DNA of 64,000 nt from an uncultured Candidatus Saccharibacteria bacterium (GCA_964490395.1 CAZBAS010000003.1:120293-184292); one strand, 5' to 3'. Counted from the stretch's first letter, positions 1,964 to 61,993 are shown. Notes: generated by a model from the letters alone, not told the origin. Translations and numbers: made by a program.

Positions 1964-2806
1964 CTATTTTTTCTTGTGGCGTTTGAGCTCAAGATGTCGC
2001 CAGAGGCCCCCCAGGTCCTTAGTAAATGTTGCCTGCCAGCCTGGTAGGAGTTTTCTAATCATTTTCTGTAAGTCTGGTTTTGAACCGTCGTCTATCTCCA
2101 GTAATGCAATACCGCCAGTTTTAAGGTGTTTCGGCAGATCTGCAAAGAAGCGTTGGTATATATCCCATACCTCGCCGCCATCGGTTATGGCGACTTTTGG
2201 CTCGTATTTTAGGTTGTGAAAAAGCAGTTCGTACATGCCTTGCGGTACGTAGGGTAAATTGGCAACGATTATGTCGAACGCGCCGCGAGTATTTGTAAAT
2301 AAATCGCTTTGCACAAAGTTCACGTTCACTTTGTGAGTTTTTGCATTTTGCGCTGCTACTGTAAGGGCAGCAGGAGAAATATCGGAAGCCGTTATTTCAC
2401 TGGGAAGTGGAAAGTGGGAAGTGGAAAGTGAATGCGCAAGACTTATCGAGATGCAGCCCGACCCAGTACCTACATCCAATATTGAGACTTTCGACTTTAT
2501 AGACTTTCGACTTTTGACGATCGCTAACGCGCGTTCGACCAGCCATTCAGTCTCCGGGCGGGGGACTAAGACGAGTTTGTTCACTTTGAATTTAAGACCG
2601 TAAAAATATTTATAGCCCAGTATGTAGGCGACGGGTTCACCAGCGCGCCTGCGCTCTATGAGTTTTGTAAGTTTTTTTTGCTGCTCAGTAGTTAGTTTTG
2701 TTCCCGGGTGCATATATAAAAACTCCTTAGGTTGCTTCAGCACATGCGCAAGGAGTAACTCTATTTCAATGTCTTTGTACTTTTGCAGTGTTTGTTGAAT
2801 AGTCAT
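1964..2806 (-). CDS. prmC: release-factor glutamine N5-methyltransferase PrmC/HemK
   Basis: It has DVGTGSGCISI (SAM binding) and NLPYV (the NPPY-like motif). It contains an in-frame 13-mer tandem repeat gggaagtggaaagt at 2401-2433. Confidence 0.85.
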   Translation of the reverse strand: MTIQQTLQKYKDIEIELLLAHVLKQPKEFLYMHPGTKLTTEQQKKLTKLIERRRAGEPVAYILGYKYFYGLKFKVNKLVLVPRPETEWLVERALAIVKSRKSIKSKVSILDVGTGSGCISISLAHSLSTSHFPLPSEITASDISPAALTVAAQNAKTHKVNVNFVQSDLFTNTRGAFDIIVANLPYVPQGMYELLFHNLKYEPKVAITDGGEVWDIYQRFFADLPKHLKTGGIALLEIDDGSKPDLQKMIRKLLPGWQATFTKDLGGLWRHLELKRHKKK

Positions 2807-4722: not shown

Positions 4723-5472
4723 ATGAAAGACGTAACACTCCTTGAGCTCCTCAAGAGCGGAGCTCATTTTGGGCACACCACCAGCCGGTGGAACCCTCGC
4801 ATGAAGTCGTACATTTATACGGTACGCAACAACATTCATATTTTAGACTTGGCCAAGACACGCCAGGCACTGCTTAAGGCAGCAAGCTTTGTTTCTGACA
4901 GAGCAGCCATGGGCGGCACCGTTTTGTTTGTTGGCACTAAGCGCCAGTCCAGAGAAAGCATTAAGCAAGCTGCAGAAGCCTGCGATATGCCATACGTAAC
5001 CGCACGCTGGCTTGGTGGTACCTTTACCAATTTTCGAACTATTCAAAAAACTATTCGCAAACTCGAGAAGCTCCAGGAGCTTAAAGCAACTGGTCAGCTC
5101 GAAGCGCAATATACCAAGAAAGAACGCTTACTCATTGAGCGTGAGATGATAAAACTGGAAAAGCTGTTCGAAGGTATAAAGAATATGCGCAAGCTCCCAG
5201 ATGCTATATTCGTATCTGCAGTTGAGCACGATAGCACTGCAGTGCTTGAAGCTCGCAAAATGCATGTTCCTGTTATTGGTCTCGTAGACAGCAACAGCGA
5301 TCCACGGTACATAGATTTTCCAATTCCTTGCAACGACGATGCAACTAAGGCAGTAGCGCTTGTAGCTGGTGCCATTAGCGAAGCTATAGCAGAAGGAAGA
5401 CACCGCTTTAGCGCTGGCGCAGCAGTTGCCGCAGCTAAAGTAGAAAAAGAAGAAGCAGAACAGAAGAATTAA
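4723..5472 (+). CDS. rpsB: 30S ribosomal protein S2
   Basis: It starts LLKSGAHFGHTTSRWNPRM, the classic S2 N-terminus. Confidence 0.95.
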   Translation: MKDVTLLELLKSGAHFGHTTSRWNPRMKSYIYTVRNNIHILDLAKTRQALLKAASFVSDRAAMGGTVLFVGTKRQSRESIKQAAEACDMPYVTARWLGGTFTNFRTIQKTIRKLEKLQELKATGQLEAQYTKKERLLIEREMIKLEKLFEGIKNMRKLPDAIFVSAVEHDSTAVLEARKMHVPVIGLVDSNSDPRYIDFPIPCNDDATKAVALVAGAISEAIAEGRHRFSAGAAVAAAKVEKEEAEQKN

Positions 5473-5555
5473 GAGATAAGAATTATGAATTATGACTTCG
5501 GACACAGTACGTCCAAAGTTGTATCGTAATTCGTTATTCATAATTCATTATTCAA
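5472..5555. repeat. AT-rich inverted repeat between rpsB and tsf
   Basis: agaattatgaattatgac pairs with gttattcataattcattattc. Confidence 0.4.
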
Positions 5556-5565
5556 TCAAAAATAT

Positions 5566-7125: not shown

Positions 7126-7194
7126 CTCAGCTGTTGCGCCACCCGCAACATCTTGCTACAATAAGTCCTGTCTGGTTTTTCTTTTCTTTCTTTT

Positions 7195-7230
7195 TCCTCC
7201 CCTAGAATAGGGGAGGCTAGGTGGGGTATT
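7195..7230. repeat. palindromic repeat of the CCCCTAnnnTAGGGG + TGGGG family (P1)
   Basis: tcctcccctagaataggggaggctaggtggggtat. Confidence 0.5.
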
Positions 7231-7312: not shown

Positions 7313-7388
7313 GCCGTTGTAGCTCAGTTGGTAGAGCATCTCCATGGTAAGGAGAAGGTCTGCGGTTCGATCCCGCACAACGGCTCCA
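7313..7388 (+). tRNA. tRNA-Thr (anticodon GGT)
   Basis: A manual cloverleaf gives acceptor GCCGTTG/CAACGGC, D-arm GCTC..GAGC, anticodon stem TCTCC/GGAGA with loop ATGGTAA, T-arm TGCGG TTCGATC CCGCA, discriminator T and an encoded CCA. Confidence 0.88.
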
Positions 7389-7390
7389 GA

Positions 7391-7421
7391 AAAACACTGC
7401 AATAAACTAGCAGTGTTTTTT
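7391..7421 (+). terminator. hairpin terminator after tRNA-Thr
   Basis: aaaacactgcaataaactagcagtgtttttt. Confidence 0.5.
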
Positions 7422-7425
7422 ATAT

Positions 7426-8328
7426 ATGGATATACAAATCTTATCCCGCAAGTTCATTGACTACTTAAAGTGCATTAAGGGTTACTCGGCGGAGACGCTC
7501 CGTCGTTACCGGCAGGTCATAAACTATTTTTGTAGCTATGCGCACATACACAGTATTGAACAGGTGGATCAGGAGAATGCGCGAAACTTATTTTACTACG
7601 GTCGTACAGAACAAAAGTGGACCACCAACACTTTTATCTGCAATCACAAGTCACTCATGGCATTCTTTCGCTGGTGCATGAAAGAAGAGCATATGACCTT
7701 TAACCCTATGGAAGCGATAGAGGTGCCGAAGCTGGAGAAACGGTTGCCACCGAAGCTAAACAAACAAGACGCGCTGCGCATACTTGAAGTTGTAGATAAC
7801 TATCCGTATGACAGCAAGTTCTTGCGCCTAAGGAGTTACGCAATATTCGCAAAGTTCATAATGGCAGGAGTGCGAAAGAAAGAACTATTAAATTTAAAAT
7901 ATACAGACGTTGAAATAGAAAACCTTTCCATATTCATCCGGCAGGGGAAGGGGAGTAAAGACCGGGTTGTACCAATTAACTACCGGCTGGCAGAAGCATT
8001 GCAGCGCTATGCAGAAGAGCGCCGCAGGGCAAACAAAACCTGCCCGGAGTTTTTTACTTCTTCTACGTATGACCAGGGCTTTACACATAGCGGTTTAAAG
8101 CGCGTACTGGAAAGAATAATACAAACTTCCGGCATACAGTTTAACATTCACAAGCTGCGCCACACATTTGCCACGCTAATGCTTGAAGGCGGCTGTGACC
8201 TGTACAGCCTTTCAAAAATGATGGGGCACAACGATATTAAAACCACCACCATATACTTGGCCGCTAACATTGAGCACCTGCGGGCGCAAATTACCAAACA
8301 CCCTTTGGCTCAGTGGTTTATGGGTTGA
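7426..8328 (+). CDS. tyrosine recombinase / phage-type integrase
   Basis: The C-terminal catalytic region reads HKLRHTFATLMLEGGCDLYSLSKMMGHNDIKTTTIYL (R..HxxR..Y). It sits immediately 3' of a tRNA. Confidence 0.85.
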   Translation: MDIQILSRKFIDYLKCIKGYSAETLRRYRQVINYFCSYAHIHSIEQVDQENARNLFYYGRTEQKWTTNTFICNHKSLMAFFRWCMKEEHMTFNPMEAIEVPKLEKRLPPKLNKQDALRILEVVDNYPYDSKFLRLRSYAIFAKFIMAGVRKKELLNLKYTDVEIENLSIFIRQGKGSKDRVVPINYRLAEALQRYAEERRRANKTCPEFFTSSTYDQGFTHSGLKRVLERIIQTSGIQFNIHKLRHTFATLMLEGGCDLYSLSKMMGHNDIKTTTIYLAANIEHLRAQITKHPLAQWFMG

Positions 8329-9817: not shown

Positions 9818-9911
9818 CAATCGCCAAAACTTAAATTTTCAGGACAAGTGTCCACCGCTGCGAAGAAAGGCGCAGCGGTTTTTTATTGTGCGAATATATT
9901 CGTATATATAC

Positions 9912-9943
9912 AAAAAGAACGTACAAGTTAGTACGTTCTTTTT
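9912..9943. terminator. bidirectional hairpin terminator
   Basis: aaaaagaacgtac aagtta gtacgttcttttt is a perfect 13-bp stem flanked by A and T runs. Confidence 0.6.
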
Positions 9944-9946
9944 GTA

Positions 9947-10216
9947 TGGTGGGCCGAGTAGGATTCGAACCTACGAAGGCATAAGCCAGCTGATTTCAAT
10001 TTTCTCGGAGTTTCCTCTGAGGATCGGACTATATCTTCACCGTGATCAGTATGATGGTAGGTGTTTCGGTATCTAGTCTCTACGGCGCTCCCCGGCAGTG
10101 TGCCAGAGTTCCCACGGTATTACCATATTTACCTTAGTAAATTTAGGCTTCACCGTTATCCCGAAAAGTTCACTTTAGCGTTTCCACTAAAGGCTGCAAT
10201 TGTTTACAGTCAGCCC
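9947..10216 (-). ncRNA. candidate tmRNA (ssrA-like): a tRNA-like 3' terminus whose 5' acceptor partner lies 260 nt upstream
   Basis: On the minus strand the RNA ends GUAGG-UUCGAAU-CCUAC-UCGGCCC-A-CCA, which is a T-arm, a 3' acceptor strand, a discriminator and an encoded CCA. No anticodon or variable arm precedes the T-arm, unlike a tRNA. The complementary 5' strand GGGCUGA lies at plus-strand positions 10210-10216. No canonical -LAA tag ORF was found, so the call is tentative. Confidence 0.4.
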
Positions 10217-10246
10217 CCGTTGACCGCTTGGGTATCGACCCGCGTT

Positions 10247-10846
10247 TTACGCGGTAAGGTCAGTGAGTAATGCTTTGCATTCGGTCAATATTTCTTCAAG
10301 CAGTTTTTTATCGCTGTACCTAATATGGATTACGCCTTGAGGCATTGTTCGGTTTAAGCGCGTGCCCTGATTCTGGCGAACGTAGGGCTTTGTAAACTGA
10401 TTTTTAGAAACTTTAAGGGCTTTCGCCCAGTAATTGATTAGTCCCGTGGGACTATCTTCAGAAAAGCAATACAGGTAAAATCTTAGCTTATTTTCGTCTA
10501 TTTGGCAAATCTCTCTGAGGAATTTAAGGAACAATTTTATTGCTGGCATGGATGAGTTGGCAAGGTCTACGGTATTGCCAGTTTTGGCACCTTCGCCCCA
10601 GTAGAGCATTAAGGCGGCTATTTGGAGGTGTCGTTGTGGGGGAGTCAGCTTACTGACAATACTGTAGGTCTTGGGTGTCTGGAGAAATCGAAGTTTGTTT
10701 TGCTCGGTCTGGCTACGCATGCGCACTTTGGCCCTTCTGAGGATTCGATACACAGTGTGTATCGCCACGCCAGTTTCTCTGGCGATTGCAGGGGTGCTTC
10801 TGCCAGCGTTGTACAATGTAGTTATTTTTTCTGTATCAATCTCCAT
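10247..10846 (-). CDS. helix-turn-helix DNA-binding protein with a C-terminal domain of unknown function
   Basis: The N-terminal HTH reads LYNAGRSTPAIARETGVAIHTVYRIL. The weak LYWGEGAK similarity to LAGLIDADG is not convincing. Confidence 0.5.
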   Translation of the reverse strand: MEIDTEKITTLYNAGRSTPAIARETGVAIHTVYRILRRAKVRMRSQTEQNKLRFLQTPKTYSIVSKLTPPQRHLQIAALMLYWGEGAKTGNTVDLANSSMPAIKLFLKFLREICQIDENKLRFYLYCFSEDSPTGLINYWAKALKVSKNQFTKPYVRQNQGTRLNRTMPQGVIHIRYSDKKLLEEILTECKALLTDLTA

Positions 10847-10868
10847 AGCATTATTATAACATAAGACA

Positions 10869-10886
10869 AGCTGATAATTATCAGCT
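10869..10886. promoter_or_regulatory. perfect 18-bp palindrome AGCTGATAATTATCAGCT in a divergent promoter region
   Basis: It lies between the divergently transcribed HTH gene (minus strand) and the 10983 gene (plus strand) and is a likely operator. Confidence 0.35.
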
Positions 10887-10982
10887 TAGCATTACAAATG
10901 CTCACCTCCTGTTTCCTCTAACTGGTTTTATCTTTACTGCTCATGCTATACTGAATGTACCTTTTAATACATTTAAGCGTCC

Positions 10983-11576
10983 ATGCAGCCGCATTTTCCT
11001 CAAGCCTTACTCGAAGATACCCCAGAAGCGGATATAATTAGTTTTTTGTTATTTGCTCCGCCAAGAACCTTTAGCGCTCGTGAACTTGGAGTCCGACTTG
11101 GTCTCCGACCTAATAAATTAGTAGATAGCCTTGCCCGTTTGGTGGAGGGTGGTCAGCTTGTTACCTGTAGTAGAGGATCCATTCGCTACTACCGTTTGAA
11201 TCAGAAGCATAGATTTTACCCAGAGGTCCGTGAGGCGCTCATGGAACGGGGGAAAGACTACGAAGACGAACTATTTGCAGCTCTGAAAAAACTTGGTGCT
11301 AAAGCCGCCTTCCTGAGCGGTCTGTTTGTAGGAAAGCCTGAGCTAGAGGTGGACATGCTTATAGTGGGTAGTGTAAAAGAAGATAAGCTTAAGGCATTCA
11401 TAGAGGCGTGTGAACACATGATGGGGCAGGAGATAAACTACTGCATTATGGAAGAAGCGGAGTTTGTTGTTCGCCGCGACACTTTTGATAGGTTTATAAA
11501 AGATATCTTTGATTATCCGTACATTACCGTAGTAGATACTATTCAGCAGAAAAAGACACAAAAGCAGACAGCGTAA
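10983..11576 (+). CDS. winged-HTH plus minimal nucleotidyltransferase (Pol-beta superfamily)-like protein
   Basis: FSARELGVRLGLRPNKLVDSLARLVEGGQLV looks like a winged HTH. GLFVGKPELEVDMLIVGS resembles the MNT motif G..G....SD.D with E.D in place of D.D. Confidence 0.45.
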   Translation: MQPHFPQALLEDTPEADIISFLLFAPPRTFSARELGVRLGLRPNKLVDSLARLVEGGQLVTCSRGSIRYYRLNQKHRFYPEVREALMERGKDYEDELFAALKKLGAKAAFLSGLFVGKPELEVDMLIVGSVKEDKLKAFIEACEHMMGQEINYCIMEEAEFVVRRDTFDRFIKDIFDYPYITVVDTIQQKKTQKQTA

Positions 11577-11602
11577 ATGGACTTTGTGGATAACTTAAAC
11601 TT

Positions 11603-11626
11603 CCCCTCACATTTGAGGGGATTTTA
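11603..11626 (+). terminator. Rho-independent terminator
   Basis: cccctcacatttgaggggatttt. Confidence 0.55.
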
Positions 11627-11642
11627 TATTATTGACGTATAG

Positions 11643-11680
11643 TGAACGATCGTTTATTATACACGTGTACGAACGTTTAG
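11643..11680. promoter_or_regulatory. candidate SOS (Cheo-type GAAC-N4-GTTC) box region upstream of the four-helix-bundle and lexA gene pair
   Basis: gtGAACgatcGTTTat is followed by tacacgtgtaCGAACGTTT. The match is imperfect. Confidence 0.25.
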
Positions 11681-11822
11681 TTACTGGTTACAAGACATCA
11701 ATTGTAAATTCAAAAAATGCAATGTCTGGGGTCGGCTGGCATTTGTCAGGACTGCAGAGCCAAGTCTTAGTAACCAGTAATTATTGCGCAAGATTTGAAT
11801 TACGAAGTATGAATTAAGAATT

Positions 11823-12215
11823 ATGCAATCGCACGAACAGAATAAAATTGAGAAGTTTACAGATTTGAATGCATGGCGAGAAGCGCATAATTTGGTTCTA
11901 AAGACTTATGTTGTTATTAAGGATTTTCCTAAGGATGAGTTATTTGGCCTTACGAGTCAGCTAAGACGTGCAGTAGTTTCCATAACGTCGAATATTGCCG
12001 AGGCGTTCAGTAGAAATTCCTTTAAAGAAAAGTTACAATTTTGGGCTATAAGTTTAGGTTCTTTAACAGAAGTCCAAAATCAGTTAATTATAGCTCGAGA
12101 TGTAGGTTATTTGAGTCCACAAGACTACGAAGCCCTGAACAGTCAGTCCATAGTTGCTAGTAAGTTAATCAATGGTTTAATCAAGAAAACTAAAGTAATT
12201 ATTCATAATTCGTAA
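11823..12215 (+). CDS. four-helix-bundle protein (23S rRNA intervening-sequence / Avd-like family), paralogue 1
   Basis: It has the family signature FGLTSQLRRAVVSITSNIAEAFSR. It is about 40% identical to the paralogues at 12879, 13880 and 32497. Confidence 0.8.
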   Translation: MQSHEQNKIEKFTDLNAWREAHNLVLKTYVVIKDFPKDELFGLTSQLRRAVVSITSNIAEAFSRNSFKEKLQFWAISLGSLTEVQNQLIIARDVGYLSPQDYEALNSQSIVASKLINGLIKKTKVIIHNS

Positions 12216-12239
12216 TTCAGTATTCATAATTCAAACTCT

Positions 12240-12857
12240 ATGAGCAAAGATATTACAGGTAGACAAAAAGAATTACTACAATTCATCATAAAACAGGTGC
12301 GAGAGCACAATCTGCCACCGTCTATTTCTGAAATGGCAACTTTTCTTAAAGTGAGCTCCAAGAATGCAGTAGCTAAACTGCTCAATGCTCTGGAAGAAGC
12401 GGGCTACATAAAAACAGACGGTCGTGCGCGCGGTATAACCATATTAGATGCTTTGGGGGATACTCTAGAAAAAGGACTAATTCGCGTACCACTTCTTGGG
12501 CGCATTCAAGCTGGTGTACCGCACATGGCAGAAGAGCAAATAGAAGAGTGGGTTAACTTACCGCAAACTCTGGTAAAGGGTCGTAGAGATGTATTCCTGC
12601 TTAAAGTTCGCGGTGAAAGTATGATAAATGCTGGAATTTACGAAGGGGACCTAGTTATAGTTCGTCCCACCAAAGAAGCAAAGAATACAGATATAGTGGT
12701 GGCTCTTCTGCATGACGAAGCAACGGTGAAGCGACTTATATATGTAAAGAACCGAGCATACCTTAAAGCGGAAAATCCTGAATTCCCAAATATCTATCCT
12801 AAAGAAGAGTGGACCATACAAGGTAAAGTAGTCGGCGTTATCCGAAACCTAGAATAG
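12240..12857 (+). CDS. lexA: LexA repressor (S24 peptidase)
   Basis: An N-terminal winged HTH is followed by a C-terminal VRGESM (Ser) and VKRL (Lys) dyad. The fold motif GDLVIV is present. Confidence 0.9.
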   Translation: MSKDITGRQKELLQFIIKQVREHNLPPSISEMATFLKVSSKNAVAKLLNALEEAGYIKTDGRARGITILDALGDTLEKGLIRVPLLGRIQAGVPHMAEEQIEEWVNLPQTLVKGRRDVFLLKVRGESMINAGIYEGDLVIVRPTKEAKNTDIVVALLHDEATVKRLIYVKNRAYLKAENPEFPNIYPKEEWTIQGKVVGVIRNLE

Positions 12858-12878
12858 TAGTCAGAATATAGTAGTCGG

Positions 12879-13256
12879 TTGTCAGTTAATACGATCTGTA
12901 TGACCATACTCAAGTTTGAAGATATCCTTGCCTGGAAAAAGGCGCATGAGCTAACTCTTATGGTCTACGCACTCACTAAGGATTTCCCCCGAGAAGAGAT
13001 ATTCGGTCTAACTAGCCAGATTCGCGGGGCTGCGGTATCCGTTCCATCAAATATAGCCGAAGGGTTTAAGCGCAGAACCAAGAGCGACTCAATTCACTTT
13101 TATAATATTGCCCAAGGTTCATTGGAAGAAGCTAAATATCAGTTATTGCTCGCGCGCGACTTGGGTTATATACGAAATTCAGATTTTGATCTCAGTGCTG
13201 TTATTACAGATGAGGCAGGTAGATTGCTTGCCGGTTGGATTAGAAACGCTAAATAG
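12879..13256 (+). CDS. four-helix-bundle protein (IVS/Avd-like), paralogue 2
   Basis: FGLTSQIRGAAVSVPSNIAEGFKRR. Confidence 0.8.
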   Translation: MSVNTICMTILKFEDILAWKKAHELTLMVYALTKDFPREEIFGLTSQIRGAAVSVPSNIAEGFKRRTKSDSIHFYNIAQGSLEEAKYQLLLARDLGYIRNSDFDLSAVITDEAGRLLAGWIRNAK

Positions 13257-13350
13257 TACTAACAACTAACAACTGACTACTTACAACTTAATTAATTCCC
13301 CTGCGGTCGTCAGGGTCGTGTTAAACATTCTCTAAATTAAATTTACGTAT

Positions 13351-13842
13351 ATGCAATTAGATTTACAACTACAACAATTAAATGGTTTTTTTGGGACCGC
13401 TGCGTTGGCTACCTATGCCGGTAATAGTGGGTACGCAAAACCAATTAATAAGGGTTTTAAAGAGATGGAATATCGGGAAAACGACTGGTATTACCGTGAC
13501 AGCTATTGTGGCTTCTTTAAATCGTGGGGCAAAGAAACAGTGTGGTTCAAAGAAAAGCCTGTTTGGGTACAAAACTATGGAGGTGGCATGAACACCGAGT
13601 ACCAAGGCAATGAAAGTTTTGCTAAGCGCACATTTAGTTTTCTTAAGTCCGCGCTTGCTGCCGGCAAAAAGAGTGAAGTGTTTCAACCGCGCGGCCCGAA
13701 ACAGTACAAAAAAGGTAATTGGAGATACGAAACAGACCTAGATGGCGGCATTCAAAAGTTCAATGGTTTTGAAAAAATATTTTATAAAGATAAATTAGTA
13801 TTTACCCACCGCTATTTCGGCGGAGTTGTCATAGACAGGTAG
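13351..13842 (+). CDS. hypothetical protein, rich in aromatic and Gly residues
   Basis: It is an intact 163-aa ORF between two four-helix-bundle genes. No motif was recognised. Confidence 0.45.
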   Translation: MQLDLQLQQLNGFFGTAALATYAGNSGYAKPINKGFKEMEYRENDWYYRDSYCGFFKSWGKETVWFKEKPVWVQNYGGGMNTEYQGNESFAKRTFSFLKSALAAGKKSEVFQPRGPKQYKKGNWRYETDLDGGIQKFNGFEKIFYKDKLVFTHRYFGGVVIDR

Positions 13843-13879
13843 TTCATAAAGTTTATAAAGTCCATAAAGTAAATGCAAT

Positions 13880-14224
13880 ATGAAAATTAATAATTTCGAA
13901 GATATTATTGCATGGCAAAAAAGCAAAGACCTGGGGCTTCGACTTTATAAATCTTTTGGCAGACACGCCGATTATGGTTTTAGGGACCAAATACTTCGAG
14001 CGGTCATAAGCATTGCGAATAATATTGCGGAGGGCTTTGAAAGGCGGAGCAATAAAGAATTAAGGCAATTTCTGTTCATTGCAAAAGGATCGTGCGGTGA
14101 AGTTCGGTCTATGCTCTACTTCGCTTCTGAACTGGGTTATATAACATCCGCAGAGCTCGATAGCTATATGGATTCCTCTATAGAAATATCTAAATTATTA
14201 TCTGGATTTATTAAAACTTTATAA
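13880..14224 (+). CDS. four-helix-bundle protein (IVS/Avd-like), paralogue 3
   Basis: ILRAVISIANNIAEGFERRSNKE. Confidence 0.8.
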   Translation: MKINNFEDIIAWQKSKDLGLRLYKSFGRHADYGFRDQILRAVISIANNIAEGFERRSNKELRQFLFIAKGSCGEVRSMLYFASELGYITSAELDSYMDSSIEISKLLSGFIKTL

Positions 14225-14261
14225 ACTTTAAGAACTTTATTAACTTTTAACTTAAAAATAT

Positions 14262-14456
14262 ATGTCAGAAATGGAACTGACCAAACAAAATATAGTAAGT
14301 CAATTGCGCCGGTTGTGCGCACACTGCAATGCTGGACAGCAAGTGCCCCATCGTTGCACGGTTAAAGAAATAGCGCTTCGCGTACAGGCAATTCGCGGTA
14401 TTCCACTTATTGTAAATGACGAGTTTCGTGGTGTGCTCAACCCTTCATATCGCTAG
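14262..14456 (+). CDS. small hypothetical protein (64 aa)
   Basis: It is an ORF with the Cys/His pattern CAHCN..HRC. Confidence 0.3.
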   Translation: MSEMELTKQNIVSQLRRLCAHCNAGQQVPHRCTVKEIALRVQAIRGIPLIVNDEFRGVLNPSYR

Positions 14457-14460
14457 TATG

Positions 14461-14552
14461 GTCTGTCATCCCGCTCAGCGGGATGCTAACCACGCTGAGC
14501 GTGGTCATTCCCGCACATGCGGGAATCCAGTGTCGCTATCCCAGCGACACAG
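14461..14552. repeat. cluster of four consecutive short GC hairpins
   Basis: catcccgctcagcgggatg, accacgctgagcgtggt, cattcccgcacatgcgggaatc and gtgtcgctatcccagcgacac. The stems resemble the termini of the TGTCATTCCGG MITE-like family. Confidence 0.5.
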
Positions 14553-14606
14553 CCAAAGCTCTTAGTTTAGTTTGTAAATTATTTTGTTCTTAACACAAAA
14601 AAGTAT

Positions 14607-14870
14607 ATGCAAACATCTACAGTGCAGTACAAGTACAGTACTCGAACGCAAGGCTGGGTGGCTCGCGAAAAACCAGCATCGTACGCTGGTCGTGAAGATG
14701 CGTTATTGCTGGAGTTTAAAAAAGAAAGCATTGCCTTAGCGCAGCAAATATGGGAACTTGCAAATTTAGATACTAAAATTACTCCCATGGAGGAAGCAAA
14801 ACTAGTATTTAAACTGGAAGCCATTCTAGATATGCGCCGTGAACTAGTAAAAGAGGCGGGTACCAAATAA
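14607..14870 (+). CDS. hypothetical small protein (87 aa)
   Basis: ORF only. Confidence 0.35.
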   Translation: MQTSTVQYKYSTRTQGWVAREKPASYAGREDALLLEFKKESIALAQQIWELANLDTKITPMEEAKLVFKLEAILDMRRELVKEAGTK

Positions 14871-14943
14871 CAAAAATAGCCATAAAAGGCTATTTTTGCT
14901 GTATCAGGCCGACATGCTATTATATTTATAATCTTCCAATCAT

Positions 14944-15171
14944 ATGGAACTTACTAAAGAATATTTGGATAAACACTATCAAGAGCTTAACGAATTTCTC
15001 AGCGAACAGTTTGAGAAGGTTTTTGCTCGTTTCGATGAAATGGCCGCCAAAGCGGAGCTAGCGGCCCTGGAGAGAAAAACAACCGAGGGATTTGCAGAAC
15101 AATCTATTAAACTTGGTTTTATCCAAGCAGGCATAGCGATATTGAGAAAGGACTTAGAAGCCTTGGCCTAA
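14944..15171 (+). CDS. hypothetical coiled-coil protein that may continue by a +1 frameshift to 15280
   Basis: The stop at 15169-15171 is followed by an overlapping open frame reading KRTKDDDNAFTKELIKLKSRIDALERKVQALKKQHA, which ends at the terminator. Confidence 0.35.
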   Translation: MELTKEYLDKHYQELNEFLSEQFEKVFARFDEMAAKAELAALERKTTEGFAEQSIKLGFIQAGIAILRKDLEALA

Positions 15172-18513: not shown

Positions 18514-20022
18514 ATGTTTAAGCGAAATAAACCAACTATAGGTGTGTACATTGGTGCTGCAGTATATGTGGGAGCGTTGTTTCTACTCGGCTGGGTTCAT
18601 GGTGATGCAGGCGATTTGCGCATAATTCGCCTTACAGAGGGGTTTGCGCTGGGTGCGATAGTTTCCTTGTATTGTGCACTTTTACCTACAGCACTCTATG
18701 AACAATTTCCCGCAATTCCTGGCAAGAACTCATGGATTTCCGCGAAACAAGCATTCTACGTAGTAGCGCTGTGCTTTGCTTTGGTCCATGGTTCTTTGGC
18801 GTTCTTCAAGCTTTTGGGCGGCTTTGCAGGGTGGGGCTTTTTGGGTGCGGTCTATCAAAAGGCAGCTGTTTTAGGGGTGATGACCATACTCGGCATTGCA
18901 TGTTGCGTTGCCTACAATTTCTTTGCACGTTTTGAAACTGCTCTCCAGAAATATCCTAAGGTAAAAAGTATTGCGTATGCACTGTCGGTTCTTGTTGTGG
19001 TTCATGCGTCTTTGGTTGGGAGTCATGTCCGCATAGCAACATCGCCCGTACGTTGGCTGGGCTTTTTGGGGGTAGCATTTTTGTTTTTACTCCTGGCACT
19101 CCGCGTTGATAAGAAAGTATTTGCTGGCACAAACATTGCATGGTGCACTATAGTAGTAGCCATTGCCACAGGCCTACTTGGGCAGATGTGGCTTCTCGGG
19201 CCAGTCTTGGCTCGAAATGGCTCAGCCTCTAACTCCGGCGCCCATGCAGGCATGGATATGTCCAGTATGGCTGGTATGAATATGTCTATGGGTACTTCTA
19301 GTAGCCAGTACACTCTCAGTGTGCAAACACCGCCCAATATAACTGCAGGGAGTAGTGTGCCATTTTCCTTCAAGGTATTTACTGCAAGCACCGGAAGCCT
19401 GGTAACCCAGTTCAATACGGTTCATGACAAGCTCGCGCACTTGGTCATTGTAAACGACAAACTTGGTTATTATAGTCATATCCACCCAGATCTTACGGAT
19501 GGCCAATTTACCATTTCCACTTCGTTTCCTGCGGATGATAATTACCGAGCGTACATAAGTTTTGAGCCAAAAGGCGGGGCAGAGCAGGTGTTTGCGTACA
19601 GCTTTGTAGTGGGCAAGGGGGCTAGTGGGGCGCCAGACAAGACTGTGGACGCAACTGCAGCAAAAACCTTTGGTGGTGTAACTGCAAGCCTACTCGGTGG
19701 TGCGAAGATTTCTGCGGTAGATGTGGCGAGCGGGAAGGCAAAGCTCACGTTCCATTTTGCTGATAGTGCAGGTAAACCGGTAACCAACTTGTACCCTTAC
19801 TTAGCAGCGTTTGGCCACCTAGTGATGATAAACACCGACACGTATTCATACCTTCATGTGCACCCGCTTATAGTGCCGTTTGGACCGGAGGAAACAAGCG
19901 GTCCGGATGTGGAATTTATGGTTATGGGAAATATACAGCCTGGAATTTATAAACTCTTTGGGCAATTTAACCCAAACAAGCAGCTCATTACTGTACCGTA
20001 TACTATAGAAGTAACTAAATAA
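18514..20022 (+). CDS. CopD-like polytopic membrane domain fused to a C-terminal YtkA/CopC-like soluble domain through a Met-rich linker
   Basis: About seven or eight transmembrane helices with conserved His are followed by a GMDMSSMAGMNMSMG methionine cluster. The architecture resembles YcnJ without the CopC module. Confidence 0.55.
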   Translation: MFKRNKPTIGVYIGAAVYVGALFLLGWVHGDAGDLRIIRLTEGFALGAIVSLYCALLPTALYEQFPAIPGKNSWISAKQAFYVVALCFALVHGSLAFFKLLGGFAGWGFLGAVYQKAAVLGVMTILGIACCVAYNFFARFETALQKYPKVKSIAYALSVLVVVHASLVGSHVRIATSPVRWLGFLGVAFLFLLLALRVDKKVFAGTNIAWCTIVVAIATGLLGQMWLLGPVLARNGSASNSGAHAGMDMSSMAGMNMSMGTSSSQYTLSVQTPPNITAGSSVPFSFKVFTASTGSLVTQFNTVHDKLAHLVIVNDKLGYYSHIHPDLTDGQFTISTSFPADDNYRAYISFEPKGGAEQVFAYSFVVGKGASGAPDKTVDATAAKTFGGVTASLLGGAKISAVDVASGKAKLTFHFADSAGKPVTNLYPYLAAFGHLVMINTDTYSYLHVHPLIVPFGPEETSGPDVEFMVMGNIQPGIYKLFGQFNPNKQLITVPYTIEVTK

Positions 20023-20029
20023 GGTGTAT

Positions 20030-20135
20030 TGGTCCGGTTCTTCCCCTAAGATAGGGGAATCTAAATGGGGTATGGACCATTATTGCTATAGTTCATACCA
20101 CCCCAACCCCTCCTATTTTAGGAGGGGAACAAATG
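20030..20135. repeat. composite palindromic repeat P2 (TCCCCTAAGATAGGGGAA...CCCCTCCTATTTTAGGAGGGG)
   Basis: It is near-identical to the copy at 58554-58651. Confidence 0.55.
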
Positions 20136-20151
20136 CAGCAACGATTAGCAT

Positions 20152-30354: not shown

Positions 30355-30404
30355 TAAGCATTTAAGCATACAAACATATAAACATGTAAACATATAAACA
30401 TGTA
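30355..30404. repeat. short tandem 8-9-mer repeat (aacatgtaa / aacatataa)
   Basis: There are five or six tandem units. Confidence 0.5.
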
Positions 30405-30432
30405 AGCATGTAAAATGCCCGAGACAAGTCTC
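30405..30432. terminator. bidirectional terminator
   Basis: atgcccgagacaagtctcgggcatttg. Confidence 0.6.
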
Positions 30433-31710: not shown

Positions 31711-32475
31711 CTATTGGTCGACATTCGTAGTTTCGGATTGTGCTGTCTTTCGGATCATAATGTCTGTGAATAGTGCATCTTGCTCCACGCTGAATATGCG
31801 TTGTTTTACGAGTTCGAGCAAGGCAAGGAAAGTGACTATAACTTCGGACTTATTTTTTGCTTGGGCAATAACGCTAGAAAGTTTTGTCTCTATTTGCTTG
31901 GAAAGTAAGCCTTGCAGGTGCGTTATCTTTTCTTGTATGGATATAGCTTCTTTAATGCGCGCTTTGGGCAGGCTGTCGAGCTCTTTCAGTTCGCTCAGTA
32001 CTTTTAATATGCCATTGTAGAGTTCTCTTCCTGTAACGGAAGGGTCGGGGAAAAAGCTTACGCGCTGGGAAAACACTAAAGTACGGGTAAAGCTTTGCTC
32101 TTGCCTTGCATCGAGGACTTTTAGGTGCCGCGCTACTTCACGGAATTGCTTATACAGCAATAACTGAGTTTCAAGAGGTACACCAGCATCTTCCTCATCT
32201 GCTTCTATTTCTAGCGTTGGCAGTATTGCTTTGGACTTTATTACCAAAAGTTTAGCAGCAATAGCCAAGAAATCCGAAAGGGAAGTAGGGTCTATTTCTT
32301 CTAGCTTTCGTACATACTGCAAAAACTGCTCAGTTACCTGGGCAAGGGCGACATCGGTTATGTTTAACTTTTGCTCTTCAATTAAAGAGAGCAGTAAGTC
32401 TAACGGTCCTTCAAATTCGTGTTGTGCAAGTTTTATGCTGTGTTGTTCCATAAGTGCGTATGTAGCCTGTAACAT
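31711..32475 (-). CDS. scpA: segregation and condensation protein A
   Basis: FEGPLDLLLSLIEEQKLNITDVALAQVTEQFL. Confidence 0.85.
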   Translation of the reverse strand: MLQATYALMEQHSIKLAQHEFEGPLDLLLSLIEEQKLNITDVALAQVTEQFLQYVRKLEEIDPTSLSDFLAIAAKLLVIKSKAILPTLEIEADEEDAGVPLETQLLLYKQFREVARHLKVLDARQEQSFTRTLVFSQRVSFFPDPSVTGRELYNGILKVLSELKELDSLPKARIKEAISIQEKITHLQGLLSKQIETKLSSVIAQAKNKSEVIVTFLALLELVKQRIFSVEQDALFTDIMIRKTAQSETTNVDQ

Positions 32476-32496
32476 ATAACATGTAACAAAATCAAC

Positions 32497-32865
32497 TTAG
32501 CTCATTTTTCTGATGGTTGCCCATAACATGCGAGCTATCTCGTCTCCTAAATTATATGCTTTGCTGTAATTATCTTCGTTAATCCATGTTTCCCGATTTG
32601 CAAACTTTAGTAAGTACTGGCTTTCCTTTAAGGATCCGAAGGCGATTTCTAAGAAGTTTAATTGTACCTTATATCTGAACCTGGCGAAACCTTCAATGTA
32701 ATTTAATGCTATAGATAATGCTGCTCGCTTGTGCTGTGAACTTGATCCGAATAGTTCTTCTTTTGGATATTTGTTAGTAATAGCGTAAATAAGGTGGACA
32801 TAAGCATCGATCTTCACTTGAAGAATGTCATGGAATTTATCTTGGTTATCTGTTACATGTTCCAT
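32497..32865 (-). CDS. four-helix-bundle protein (IVS/Avd-like), paralogue 4
   Basis: FGSSSQHKRAALSIALNYIEGFAR. Confidence 0.75.
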   Translation of the reverse strand: MEHVTDNQDKFHDILQVKIDAYVHLIYAITNKYPKEELFGSSSQHKRAALSIALNYIEGFARFRYKVQLNFLEIAFGSLKESQYLLKFANRETWINEDNYSKAYNLGDEIARMLWATIRKMS

Positions 32866-32880
32866 GCTACATGTTACGTA

Positions 32881-37209: not shown

Positions 37210-37338
37210 AGATATAAATGAACTTAAAATTTAAAATTGATAAGTCAAAACTTCAACTAAAAACGAATAACTTTGTAACTGGTATGTTAGGAGTTTTTAA
37301 GTTTTAATTTGAATTTTTGACTTTTGACTTTTCAGTTT

Positions 37339-37570
37339 AAAAATAAAACACCCTTACAAACTAATCATCGTTAAATGACTAGTTTGTAAGGGCGCTCAAA
37401 ATCTGGCGCGGTGCCACCTTACTTTGTACTCTTGTGCCCTTCGCTATGCTTAGGGCCTACGGCTATAACGGGCGTTCCCGGAGAGGTCTAGTCCTGAATG
37501 AGTGCTTAGTGCTTAGTTCTTTAGTGCGCAGGAGTTTACTAGGCACTAGGTACTACTAACTAGGAACTAA
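37339..37570 (-). promoter_or_regulatory. T-box riboswitch leader for aspS
   Basis: The leader RNA has AGUAAGGUGGCACCGCGCC, which matches the T-box core GGUGGNACCGCG. The bulge UGGC would pair with GCCA of a discriminator-G tRNA-Asp. An alternative 18-bp terminator hairpin (cccuuacaaacuagucau...augauuaguuuguaaggg) plus a U-run competes with the antiterminator. Confidence 0.6.
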
Positions 37571-49631: not shown

Positions 49632-49639
49632 TGAAGAAA

Positions 49640-49737
49640 TGTCCAATTTCTAATATCTAATATCTAATGTTCGGACTATAGGGTTAAGAATTTTCATTAG
49701 GAATTAGAAATTAGGTATTAGACATTAAACGCCAGTT
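49640..49737. repeat. AT-rich inverted-repeat element of the TAATTCCTAATTTCTAAT family, upstream of the subtilase gene
   Basis: aatttctaatatctaatatctaat is paired with attaggaattagaaattaggtattagacatt. Confidence 0.5.
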
Positions 49738-51464: not shown

Positions 51465-51556
51465 AAATATCTAATTCCTAATTTCTAATGTCTAAAAAAA
51501 GACAAAGGAAAATCCGAACATTTGGAATTAGAAATTAGGAATTAGAAATTCATTTG
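51465..51556. repeat. AT-rich inverted-repeat element of the same family, downstream of the subtilase gene
   Basis: atctaattcctaatttctaatgtct is paired with ggaattagaaattaggaattagaaatt. Confidence 0.5.
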
Positions 51557-58487: not shown

Positions 58488-58553
58488 CCCGCCATCATAA
58501 CAATTTTAGATGGAGTTACGGGCTTTTATTTATGGTAGATTTAGTGGTCCTGT

Positions 58554-58651
58554 TTTCCCCCTAAGATAGGGGAAGTTAGATGGGCAGGAGCTAATAGTTT
58601 CGTGGTTCATACCACCCCTAACCCCTCCTATTTTAGGAGGGGAACAAATGC
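58554..58651. repeat. composite palindromic repeat P4, near-identical to 20030-20135
   Basis: ttttccccctaagataggggaagttagatggg is followed by cataccacccctaacccctcctattttaggaggggaacaaatgc. Confidence 0.55.
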
Positions 58652-58711
58652 TGTAATGGTTGGGGTTTGGTGTATTTTGTACCTATAGTTTTTTGTTGTT
58701 ACAATATACGT

Positions 58712-60229: not shown

Positions 60230-61993
60230 ATGTTGAGCACCTCATTTACTAACCATAAATTTTTTAAAAATCAATCCATACTTATTTTGCTACTCTGGCA
60301 GACGCTTTCCGTGTATCTTATGGCCGTGGGAACGTGGCCTGCGTGGGTGGCTTGGGTGAATGTTGGGCTCATTATTTTATTTATTGTGCTCAGACCTGCT
60401 TTCGAAGGTCTTTTGCTTGCCGTGGGGTCCATTGCTTTTTATGTGGTGCTGCCGAGCCATTTTTCTGACACCCTATCCATGTGGCGACCTGTGGTGGGTG
60501 TATTGTTTTTAAAAACGGTTTGGGAATGGTGGTTTGTTTCTTCTCCTAGGGTAGGCGGAGCTAGAGGGGGTGCGAGCGCTCATACCACACCCAACCTCTC
60601 CTATCTTAGGAGAGGAGTAAATGCCGCTCGTAGTATAGTTTTGAACTTTCATAATTCCCTCTACACCTATGAAAAATTTGGTGCCGCGTTATTTGTTTTA
60701 GCCATACTATCGCTTGCACTTGCGCGATACCCGCTTCGTGGCGCATCGCAGCTTGTTTTTTTGCTCAACACAGCGTTGCTCTATCCTATTGTAGTGTGGG
60801 CTGTTAAAAGCCGTGACCAGTTTATTCGCGTGCTTAGGTACGGCGCCCTATCTACGGGGGCCATCATAGCTATTGGATATGTACAATTTACCGCAACACT
60901 GTTTAGCGTAGCGTATTACTTTTGGCAATATTGGGCGCTGCGTGTGGCAACGTTGTACTATGGGTTGCCGCTTGCTAAAGTGCTGCAGTATTCAAACTCT
61001 TGGGTTACGGTCCAGGGCGAAGCAAAAACCCTTCGCATGTTTAGTATTATGCCGAGCAGTCATGCCTTTGCTATGGTCTGCGTATTGTTTTTAGCGTTCG
61101 CGTTACCATTGTTGTATGTGTCATCCTCGCGAAGGCGGGGATCTAACTCGCCTACAAGCGAGCAAAAAGCCGGTACTCTGTTGTCGGCTGGTGGACCGAC
61201 GTGGATTCCCGATCGGGTCGGGAATGACAGAAGAGGCAGGCTTTGGCTGGGAGTTGCGTTGGCGTGCTTGGCACTGATTGTTTCTGGAACGCGTGGGGTG
61301 TGGGCTGGTATGGTGCCAGTGTTTATTATTGTTGCATTACTCTACAAGATAAAAAACCTTAAGCTTACTGAGCTGCTTAGGCCCGCGCTGGCCGCCATGT
61401 TACTTGCGATAATTTTATTTGAAGCATCACCGTTGTTGGATCGTGGGTTTGCTTGGGTACGAAACGCAAGCGGAGAAGCGACCTTGGATAGAGTAGAAAG
61501 TATTATTAACCCCGAAGAAACATCGAATGCTGGAAGGCTCGAAATGTGGAGGGCTGCGTCAAAGTATGCGCTGCATCATCCGTTTGGGGTAGGGTATGCT
61601 AACTTTGTAGTCACTCTTTCTACAACTGCCAAGGACGTGAGTTTTGACCAGGCCGCAAGCCAGGAAAACAAACTGTATCAACTTCCTCAGCGTTACGTCA
61701 CAGCTCACAGTCTGTACCTGCAACTGCTGGTTGAGCTGAGTGCGATAGGTCTTATACTGTTCGGACTGTTCTGGCTAAGTTTTTTCTACCGCATGTGGGA
61801 TTACGTACGATCTCGGGCCTACAGCATAAGCCCCGAAACCATATATATTGCAAGCCTTTGCGTGGTATTCCTCTGGTTTCTTGCCTATGGCGTATTTGAT
61901 GTGACTTGGCTTAATGATAAGATATTACTGTATACCTTTCTAGCGTTAGGCCTCGCGAGGATTGCAGTGTCCACCACAAGCAGCGCCGATTAA
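60230..61993 (+). CDS. O-antigen ligase (Wzy_C)-like polytopic membrane protein carrying two in-frame repeat insertions
   Basis: It has a 12-TM topology with a large loop. The inserts at 60538-60625 and 61129-61229 are translated without stops as ...AHTTPNLSYLRRGVNAA... and ...SSSRRRGSNSPTSEQKAGTLLSAGGPTWIPDRVGNDRRG... Confidence 0.55.
   Translation: MLSTSFTNHKFFKNQSILILLLWQTLSVYLMAVGTWPAWVAWVNVGLIILFIVLRPAFEGLLLAVGSIAFYVVLPSHFSDTLSMWRPVVGVLFLKTVWEWWFVSSPRVGGARGGASAHTTPNLSYLRRGVNAARSIVLNFHNSLYTYEKFGAALFVLAILSLALARYPLRGASQLVFLLNTALLYPIVVWAVKSRDQFIRVLRYGALSTGAIIAIGYVQFTATLFSVAYYFWQYWALRVATLYYGLPLAKVLQYSNSWVTVQGEAKTLRMFSIMPSSHAFAMVCVLFLAFALPLLYVSSSRRRGSNSPTSEQKAGTLLSAGGPTWIPDRVGNDRRGRLWLGVALACLALIVSGTRGVWAGMVPVFIIVALLYKIKNLKLTELLRPALAAMLLAIILFEASPLLDRGFAWVRNASGEATLDRVESIINPEETSNAGRLEMWRAASKYALHHPFGVGYANFVVTLSTTAKDVSFDQAASQENKLYQLPQRYVTAHSLYLQLLVELSAIGLILFGLFWLSFFYRMWDYVRSRAYSISPETIYIASLCVVFLWFLAYGVFDVTWLNDKILLYTFLALGLARIAVSTTSSAD
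60538..60625. repeat. diverged copy of the composite palindromic repeat (P5), inside a CDS
   Basis: cataccacacccaacctctcctatcttaggagaggagtaaatgc resembles cataccaccccaacccctcctattttaggaggggaacaaatgc. Confidence 0.5.
61129..61229. mobile_element. MITE-like element (B3) with TGTCATCC...GGAATGACA termini, inside a CDS
   Basis: The terminal inverted repeats are tgtcatcctcgcgaagg and ccgatcgggtcgggaatgaca. Confidence 0.45.

Follow-up and report, generated by a model that had tools for sequence, protein, structure and literature searches.

Palindromic cassettes resembling rRNA intervening sequences in the lexA unit of an uncultured Candidatus Saccharibacteria bacterium

Intervening sequences (IVSs) occur within 23S rRNA genes of Coxiella burnetii, Leptospira and Brucella, and those with an open reading frame (ORF) encode S23p, a member of the PF05635 family. 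The Coxiella IVS has terminal inverted repeats that form a stem of ~28 bp around its ORF, with tandem heptamers that run up to the start codon, and is excised from the transcript by RNase III (PMC4990558); short forms without an ORF exist, and rRNA IVSs show a sporadic distribution that looks horizontally acquired (PMC4990558). A remote relative is Avd of Bordetella phage BPP-1 (models NF033474 and PF22296), a basic four-helix bundle, pentameric in solved relatives, that binds RNA stem-loops adjoining the duplex-bracketed template of diversity-generating retroelements (DGRs; 10.1101/2023.10.23.563531). The subject of the present analysis is a 64,000-nt stretch of DNA from an uncultured Candidatus Saccharibacteria bacterium (GCA_964490395.1, CAZBAS010000003.1:120293-184292), hereafter the window, in which the region 10983-14224 holds a cluster of three genes of this four-helix-bundle (IVP) family around lexA. 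The rest of the window consists of ordinary housekeeping genes, including prfA, prmC, rpsB, aspS, lgt and scpAB. The family itself, PF05635/TIGR02436, is very common, often with many copies per genome, and we know of no function for it outside DGRs.

Four genes and their palindromic arms

An earlier note on this DNA had recognized three IVS/Avd-family genes around lexA and a fourth at 32497, and profile searches place all four in PF05635/TIGR02436. The three copies near lexA (ORFs 11823-12215, 12879/12900-13256 and 13880-14224) match PF05635 with E values of 1e-32 to 1e-35 and scores of 111-122 bits against a cut-off of 33.8, and all four match TIGR02436 ('four helix bundle protein') with 85-115 bits against a cut-off of 24, the fourth copy (32497-32865, minus strand) with an E value of 5e-24. 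For the second copy a TTG start at 12879 is possible and the ATG at 12900 more likely. Three of the four genes lie inside 2.4 kb around lexA; in a simulation, three of four random starts fall within 2,057 bp of a 64-kb sequence with P ~0.012. The four proteins share only 30-43% identity, and each is nearer to copies in unrelated genomes than to the copies beside it. They are basic (median pI 9.5), and among solved structures the pentameric four-helix bundle 2GSC comes closest (2gsc_A, E value 4e-18), followed by 2rld_A (E value 1.6e-4); both entries contain five chains, and by homology the window proteins are probably pentamers as well. The ORFs of orthologous cassettes are under purifying selection (dN/dS of 0.11 for one orthologous pair in relatives; dN of 0.08-0.17 with saturated dS in a second orthologue group), whereas the Coxiella ORF is decaying.

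Each of the four genes is the cargo of a small palindromic cassette built like the ORF-bearing IVS of 23S rRNA, with the same protein family and the same layout. This architecture, together with the accessory status described below, is the part of our account held with high confidence. Inverted arrays of three to five tandem short repeats, of 7 nt in general and of 9 nt in cassette 3, flank a gene for a basic protein of roughly 115-130 aa, and the arms overlap or abut its codons, the start lying in or beside the final repeat of the 5' arm and the stop within the 3' arm:

11789-12235, + strand: cassette 1, with 5' arm 11794-11825, ORF 11823-12215 (130 aa) and 3' arm 12204-12235
12856-13293, + strand: cassette 2, with 5' arm 12856-12887, ORF 12900 (or TTG 12879)-13256 and 3' arm 13262-13293
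13841-14247, + strand: cassette 3, with 5' arm 13841-13870, ORF 13880-14224 (114 aa) and 3' arm 14216-14247
32461-32878, - strand: cassette 4, with ORF 32497-32865 and arms 32850-32878 and 32461-32488

Predicted folds close the terminal stem of the cassettes. The arms of cassette 1 comprise 32 nt of GAATTAT-type heptamers, are 84% complementary and form a closed stem in both the minimum-free-energy (MFE) and the centroid fold. Cassette 2 contains inverted repeats I7, I12 and I14, and its MFE fold pairs the ends 27 times, while cassette 3, with inverted repeats I2 and I3 (83-95% complementary), has a fold z-score of -2.6 with the terminal stem present. Cassette 4 lies between a 207-aa gene and scpA. 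Tandem Repeats Finder reports a period of 7 at 11797-11823, 12201-12233, 13258-13288, 32470-32488 and 32851-32877, and a period of 9 at cassette 3. Ranked by flank complementarity, the four genes take positions 1, 3, 5 and 6 among the 119 window ORFs. In contrast to the rRNA IVSs, which sit in 23S helix 9, 25 or 45, the cassettes occupy gaps between protein-coding genes and a 5' untranslated region (UTR), and Rfam detects no rRNA in the window, so that none sits in a 23S or 16S helix.

The window also contains hairpins of ~85-120 nt in intergenic gaps, with heptamer stems and no ORF, which parallel the short ORF-less IVSs. They were located with a relaxed stem detector run against shuffle controls, adopted after a strict version had lost most arms; shuffled sequence yields none:

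11678-11783, + strand: heptamer-armed hairpin in the lexA leader, inverted repeat I22, fold of -43.8 kcal/mol
2813-2904: hairpin between prmC and prfA, score 43, with 0 pairs in 10 shuffles
5464-5558: hairpin after rpsB
49637-49731: hairpin
51465-51553: hairpin

The leader hairpin, both arms of which are altered together in two relatives (L205 and L001), is either a mini-cassette or a footprint. Further hairpins of short tandem units occur at 37490-37570, 37218-37341 and 2401-2518, the last of which lies inside the prmC frame (1964-2806, minus strand), an odd place for an intergenic element. Downstream of scpB, 30355-30414 holds 7.5 copies of the 8-nt tandem repeat TAAACATA followed by a strong G+C hairpin, and this repeat has no complementary partner array. 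Dispersed intergenic hairpins, and the coexistence of forms with and without an ORF, recall REP/BIME and MITE-like palindromes; unlike those, the cassettes have no RAYT or transposase, and their repeat varies among copies but is shared by the two arms of any one copy.

The same design extends well beyond the window. A family-wide set of 77 homologous loci was assembled, mostly from genomes of the candidate phyla radiation (CPR), and most of these homologues share the inverted arms. Comparison of the upstream flank with the reverse-complemented downstream flank gives a median of 34 over the 77 loci, as opposed to 16 with mismatched partners and 15 in direct orientation, and lag-7 autocorrelation reaches 0.53 and 0.50 in the two flanks over a baseline of ~0.27. 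Heptamer sequence varies between copies and agrees between the arms of one copy. Of six plasmid copies, from cyanobacteria and Riemerella, four also show the build, as do 20 of the 27 copies from viral contigs. Cassette genes run in the direction of their upstream neighbour in 70 of 76 cases and of their downstream neighbour in 67 of 77, with median gaps of 32 and 24 nt. Bacteroidota-type copies on viral contigs (L171-L199) show a conserved segment of ~35 nt between 5' arm and start codon; its TAnnTTTG sequence, which we take to be a promoter-like motif, indicates that the cassettes of some lineages may carry a promoter of their own.

The arms evolve in concert. In orthologous cassettes both have switched heptamer type, being TTAGCnn in two genomes and GTAGTrr in two others. 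When unit-variable positions were compared between arms, the choice of best register biased a first form of the test, which was replaced by a held-out form; in this, the positions are complementary at 0.54 versus 0.43 in other registers (p = 3e-4). Column-by-column covariation over 14 cassettes with anchored ATG:CAT was uninformative, since the subfamily shares GAATTnn arms and shuffled partners give a nearly equal paired fraction. Cyanobacterial family members have heptamer arrays on both flanks, for which the heptanucleotide short tandemly repeated repetitive (STRR) sequences of cyanobacteria are presumably a counterpart. Two cyanobacterial cassettes lie inside CRISPR-Cas operons (cmr2-cmr3, cas6-cas4), one on a Picosynechococcus plasmid (L165) and one on a Pseudanabaena plasmid (L169), the latter with long direct heptamer arrays, AAAGCTA and AAAAGCC, flanking the gene. 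Such cas-operon cassettes may explain the 'CRISPR-linked' score that the family received in a large survey (PMC10910872).

The proteins also show remote homology to Avd. PHROG 3206 is matched with E values of 1e-10 to 1e-12, NF033474 with 26-37 bits by three copies (cassette 3 giving no match) and PF22296 (bAvd) with 26-32 bits. Together with the binding of Avd to RNA stem-loops beside a duplex-bracketed template (10.1101/2023.10.23.563531), this homology speaks for an orphan or remote Avd belonging to a DGR whose reverse transcriptase (RT) lies outside the window. However, both Avd scores are far under their cut-offs of 80 and 40 bits, the four copies are divergent, each with its own arms and with presence or absence at strain level, and family members are frequent in genomes and operon gaps that have no RT close by. 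As the earlier note had stated, the window appears to lack an RT: no RT family match was obtained among 30 scanned ORFs of 239-782 aa (25 of at least 280 aa and five shorter). The repeat search that it had called for detects no direct repeats of at least 45 nt in the window of the template repeat/variable repeat (TR/VR) type. The DGR reading was rejected on these three grounds (Avd models under cut-off, no RT, no TR/VR-like repeats), and we give it a minimal probability.

Cassettes in the lexA unit

The genes between which cassettes 1-3 are interleaved form a syntenic series:

10983-11576, + strand: p197, conserved upstream neighbour of lexA (synteny in relatives)
12240-12857, + strand: lexA, with Peptidase_S24 and LexA_DNA_bind domains
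13351-13842, + strand: DUF5680 gene (PF18931), inserted variably between lexA and p64 and lacking heptamer arms
14262-14456, + strand: p64, a 64-aa Cys/His-rich protein, conserved downstream partner of lexA

Cassette 1 lies in the lexA 5' UTR, and cassettes 2 and 3 lie between lexA and p64. For comparison, 80 lexA-centred loci with 271 kb of non-lexA sequence were collected from metagenome contigs. In one relative (L001; likewise L003), the LexA protein is 100% identical and the DNA ~85-88% identical to the window, gene order is the same (p197-lexA-DUF5680-p64), and all three cassettes are absent, p64 starting 4 nt after the DUF5680 stop. In a second relative (L205, 89-94% identity), cassettes 2 and 3 are present and the site of cassette 1 is empty, with about 5-17 nt between the leader hairpin and the lexA start in place of window positions 11789-12226. 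The cassettes are accessory and are gained or lost singly between close strains, which carry none, two or three of them. Neither a target-site duplication nor a conserved target sequence is seen at the three junctions compared, and for cassettes 2 and 3 no closer filled/empty pair than L205 was found among the lexA loci.

Two observations on these loci stand apart. Between window 12240-12857 and L001 1258-1875, lexA is 87.5% identical in DNA and all of the ~77 differences are synonymous, an unusually strong constraint. 'Empty' gaps (L001 1878-1940 and the lexA-p64 gaps of L125, L102 and L119) often contain solo heptamer arrays or small heptamer hairpins of another type than the cassettes that other strains carry at these places, as if earlier occupants had left footprints.

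Over the 80 loci, all IVP-family matches lie within ~700 bp of lexA, except for one divergent match (L139) that ends ~590 bp beyond lexA. The 700-bp zone makes up 32% of the non-lexA sequence, so that the chance of such a distribution is 1e-3 even if only six events were independent, and the lexA-adjacent matches fall into at least five unrelated sequence groups. Heptamer stems, located by an independent detector, follow the same pattern: the 23.8 kb that lies no more than 700 bp from lexA contains 11 of them, and the remaining 72 kb contains none. The lexA leader and the lexA-p64 gap also receive other cargo, namely PDDEXK_3 and GIY-YIG genes, an unknown 125-aa gene, the DUF5680 gene and divergent PF05635 genes.

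PDDEXK_3 genes with heptamer arms are found in the lexA 5' UTR of three loci (L087, L092, L094), indicating that the arms can hold more than one kind of cargo, and the lexA-p64 gap of L087 (3616-3985) holds a GIY-YIG gene between inverted repeats of another, G+C-rich sort. Such occupants of the same gaps, with presence or absence at precise junctions, liken the cassettes to homing endonuclease genes of the GIY-YIG and PD-(D/E)XK types; in contrast to these, the four-helix-bundle cargo has no recognized nuclease motif and there is no sign of empty-site cleavage. The lexA-p64 gap of a further locus (L135) is filled by an element like a second dispersed intergenic repeat family of ~125 nt, present in the window at 7178-7225, 20022-20146, 58537-58661 and 60522-60634, which has two G+C-rich hairpins (TCCCCTAAGATAGGGGA and CCCCTCCTATTTTAGGAGGGG) and is unrelated to the heptamer stems.

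In a sample of 80 family members drawn independently of lexA, five stand between lexA and a gene for a Y-family polymerase, in Peribacteria and one other metagenome-assembled genome (MAG), the Peribacteria order being lexA-IVP-dinB under a double LexA box. The other 75 are found elsewhere, for example at porD-porA, in secretion or pilin clusters and in cyanobacterial cas operons. Unrelated cassettes in both lexA gaps, and the lexA-cassette-polymerase order of Peribacteria, make the link with lexA real, and the association noticed in the window is not a one-off; the lexA unit is nevertheless a hotspot for this class of cassette, and neither a dedicated LexA-Avd system nor a DGR.

That the proteins might instead be working SOS parts, such as nucleic-acid-binding helpers of LexA, p64 or the Y-family polymerase kept near lexA, could be argued from the recurrence of lexA adjacency in two distant lineages, including lexA-IVP-dinB, and from the ORFs, which are under strong purifying selection. 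All three copies are nevertheless missing from strains whose LexA is identical, lexA-adjacent copies belong to unrelated sequence groups and are replaced by other cargo, and 75 of 80 independently sampled members reside elsewhere, which makes the link one of location rather than function and a role as SOS parts highly unlikely. The location would reflect tolerance of, or preference for, a unit that is normally repressed, damage-inducible and non-essential. Nor does a reading of the copies as a functional tandem array of paralogues survive the low mutual identity of the four proteins, their individual arms, their single gain and loss, the alternative cargo and the distribution of the wider family; the same holds for the copies as Avd or DGR parts, given their scores under the Avd cut-offs.

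Transcription of the cassettes and competing readings

Control elements upstream of cassette 1 are closely packed:

11602-11621, + strand: intrinsic-terminator-like hairpin that would end the p197 transcript
11632-11660, + strand: lexA promoter, -35 TTGACG, 17-nt spacer, -10 TATTAT
11642-11657: LexA box 1, GTGAACGATCGTTTAT, in the promoter spacer between -35 and -10
11665-11680: LexA box 2, GTGTACGAACGTTTAG, just 3' of the -10 element

The promoter is the best sigma-70 match within 10850-15000 (10/12), and the region upstream of cassette 1 is 100% conserved with respect to relatives that are 85% identical overall. The Cheo-type site that the earlier note had placed at 11643-11680 proves to be real and to consist of two boxes, while the short pattern by which it had been recognized, GAAC-N4-GTTY, is not enriched in the window (2 matches versus 3.7 expected). 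The operator was defined instead by phylogenetic footprinting. Over ~45 metagenome lexA loci the layout is fixed as TTGACA-N4-GTGAAC-N4-GTATAC/GTTTAY; it overlaps the -10 element, and in many cases another box comes after it. Peribacteria-type loci keep this layout with the box GTGTAC-N4-GTACAC and a second box. The consensus, GTRWAC-N4-GTWYAY, is not a strict Cheo box. This conservation argues that the LexA operator overlapping the lexA promoter, upstream of the first copy as had been suggested, is genuine. A site at 11585-11593, TGTGGATAA, which is the reverse complement of the DnaA-box consensus, lies right after the p197 stop and upstream of the lexA promoter, and is kept in many relatives.

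The hairpin at 11602-11621 is the sole terminator-like site on the + strand in 11576-13955, bar one inside p197, and in 11632-14224 no promoter match surpasses that of lexA, no terminator-like hairpin has a long G+C-rich stem, and the sole terminator-like site is a weak 5-bp match inside the cassette 3 gene. Since cassette 1 separates lexA from its LexA-controlled promoter, read-through is likely to place it under SOS control, and SOS-driven read-through expression of the cassettes is the outcome towards which we lean.

The reading that we favour, and consider fairly probable, is that IVS-type cassettes are passengers that turn over in the gaps of the lexA operon. In this lineage the cassettes appear promoterless, and their shared orientation and operon-gap position would lead to transcription by read-through from their neighbours. 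Cassettes 1-3 are most likely SOS-inducible passengers of the lexA-p64 operon, on a transcript from the promoter with two LexA boxes. By analogy with the Coxiella IVS, the arms would pair in the transcript to form an imperfect duplex of 25-32 bp that hides the start codon, and RNase III would cut this duplex, freeing the cassette RNA from the polycistronic message. Such processing, argued from that analogy and from a predicted duplex that bears no RNA-specific signature, we hold only tentatively. The basic, probably pentameric protein would bind nucleic acid, plausibly its own arms, and thereby aid the keeping or spread of the cassette; binding to its own arms is the best guess from the basic charge, the homology to Avd and the stem-loop binding of Avd, and the role as a whole is doubtful.

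Several observations weigh against this reading. Searches of other genomic contexts with the exact proteins of cassettes 1, 3 and 4 return the same locus only, and none of the window cassettes yielded a donor copy or a second context, so movement is inferred solely from presence and absence. The hotspot statistics include related metagenome contigs that are not fully independent, and the negative result for RT covers the 64-kb window, so that an RT may lie elsewhere in the genome. In 72 aligned stems, G.U pairs (70) are as frequent as A.C mismatches (74), and there is thus no tolerance of wobble pairs such as would be expected if only sense-RNA pairing were selected; this equality would be explained at least equally well by a palindrome at the DNA level, or by a symmetric origin followed by simple decay. 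The two variable positions of each heptamer pair hardly more often than chance predicts in the largest arm family, where a protein-binding motif in inverted arrays, and not a helix under selection, may account for the arms. One cyanobacterial copy has direct rather than inverted arrays.

The last three points make a DNA-level role a serious rival, although one that we judge on balance unlikely. The arms would then be DNA sites, either terminal inverted heptamer arrays or single-stranded DNA (ssDNA) hairpins comparable to attC, IS200/IS605 ends or REP, by which a recombinase, a nuclease or the cassette protein recognizes and moves the cassette, and the SOS state, with abundant ssDNA and a derepressed lexA unit, would favour capture at lexA. 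Conserved heptamer cores, the homing-type nucleases PDDEXK_3 and GIY-YIG as alternative cargo, clean presence or absence at operon junctions, and footprint-like solo arms and ORF-less hairpins in empty gaps would all suit such sites. However, no recombinase is linked to the cassettes, the three junctions show no duplicated or conserved target, and experiment shows the rRNA IVS that shares this build to be a substrate of RNase III (PMC4990558). Relative to the ORF, moreover, the 5' arm is strongly G-rich and the 3' arm C-rich (GC 458 versus CG 86), a bias that ties the polarity of the arms to the transcript or coding strand.

Integron cassettes offer a parallel. An integron cassette combines a promoterless ORF with an imperfect palindromic attC site, and intI is under LexA control. 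The window cassettes similarly combine small, promoterless, co-oriented ORFs and an imperfect palindrome with an upstream promoter, variable content at a fixed site and a link with SOS. Unlike integron cassettes, they have arms of tandem heptamers on both sides and are interleaved with the core genes lexA and p64, and no integron integrase or attI lies beside them, the only tyrosine recombinase (7426-8328) being 3.3 kb upstream with other genes between.

Surroundings of the locus and significance for the family

The homologues of p197 carry source labels of Candidatus Doudnabacteria or Patescibacteria. The protein has no Pfam or NCBIfam match. Its AlphaFold model (pLDDT 87) combines an N-terminal winged helix of ArsR/SmtB type with a C-terminal alpha/beta domain, for which Foldseek gives one match to an MNT antitoxin, the usual acidic pair being reduced to a single invariant Asp. 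The winged helix-turn-helix (HTH) domain claimed earlier for this gene thus holds in the model, and the nucleotidyltransferase claimed with it becomes a weakly supported possibility, the C-terminal domain possibly being a degenerate minimal nucleotidyltransferase. PADLOC assigns p197 to candidate family PDC-M05A (E value 4e-18) and matches neither the four-helix-bundle genes nor the DUF5680 gene nor p64; a reading of the locus as anti-phage defence was rejected, p197 being the only match. Among relatives, the DUF5680 gene is confined to the window and two loci (L001 and L144). p64 follows lexA in ~45 relatives, nearly all of those compared, at a distance of 2 to ~500 nt, and its conserved motif, LCAHC...H.C...G.PL.VN..F.G (CxxC...HxC), has no family assignment; the protein is a candidate for a small zinc-binding effector in the SOS response, such as an inhibitor of division.

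Other features that may be mobile lie upstream. A tRNA-Tyr(GTA) gene (9908-10241, minus strand) is split just after the anticodon by an insert at ~9997-10202 containing a group I intron (RF00028 at 10004-10215); ARAGORN makes no call for the split gene, and in L001 (137-222) the tRNA is intact. Directly upstream, a 199-aa ORF (10247-10846, minus strand) that is missing from L001 has an N-terminal resolvase-type HTH and no recognized nuclease domain, and could be a free-standing gene, for homing or mobility, with a link to the intron. At 7313-8328, the tyrosine recombinase (Phage_integrase; gene 7426-8328) stands immediately after tRNA-Thr, which suggests the edge of an integrated element. G+C content falls to 0.39-0.43 between 10 and 18 kb.

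Full-text literature searches returned no earlier account of heptamer-armed cassettes outside rRNA, with most subscription journals outside their reach, and within this incomplete searchable literature no description was found of IVS-type cassettes outside rRNA with a hotspot in an SOS-controlled lexA unit. A broader proposal, in which the rRNA IVS has its general, non-ribosomal form in the heptamer-armed cassettes, is one that we regard as speculative and rather improbable. They would constitute a widespread, previously undescribed mobile class in CPR bacteria, cyanobacteria, Bacteroidota and some phages, carrying an Avd-like nucleic-acid-binding protein or a small nuclease, inserting at operon junctions by a hairpin-dependent mechanism and preferring LexA-controlled units, so that DNA damage switches them on.

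For annotation, the locus is a caution that position alone gives no ground for calling genes of this family DGR, CRISPR-linked or SOS components. It also supplies objects for experiment, namely a defined series of strains with filled and empty sites, a hotspot that a defined LexA operator controls, and the genes that serve as alternative cargo. If the ordinary copies of the family share the build of the rRNA IVS, then rRNA IVSs, dispersed four-helix-bundle genes, ORF-less hairpins and probably the heptamer arrays of cyanobacteria would be one phenomenon, and would bear on a question that has stood since the 1990s, the nature of rRNA intervening sequences.

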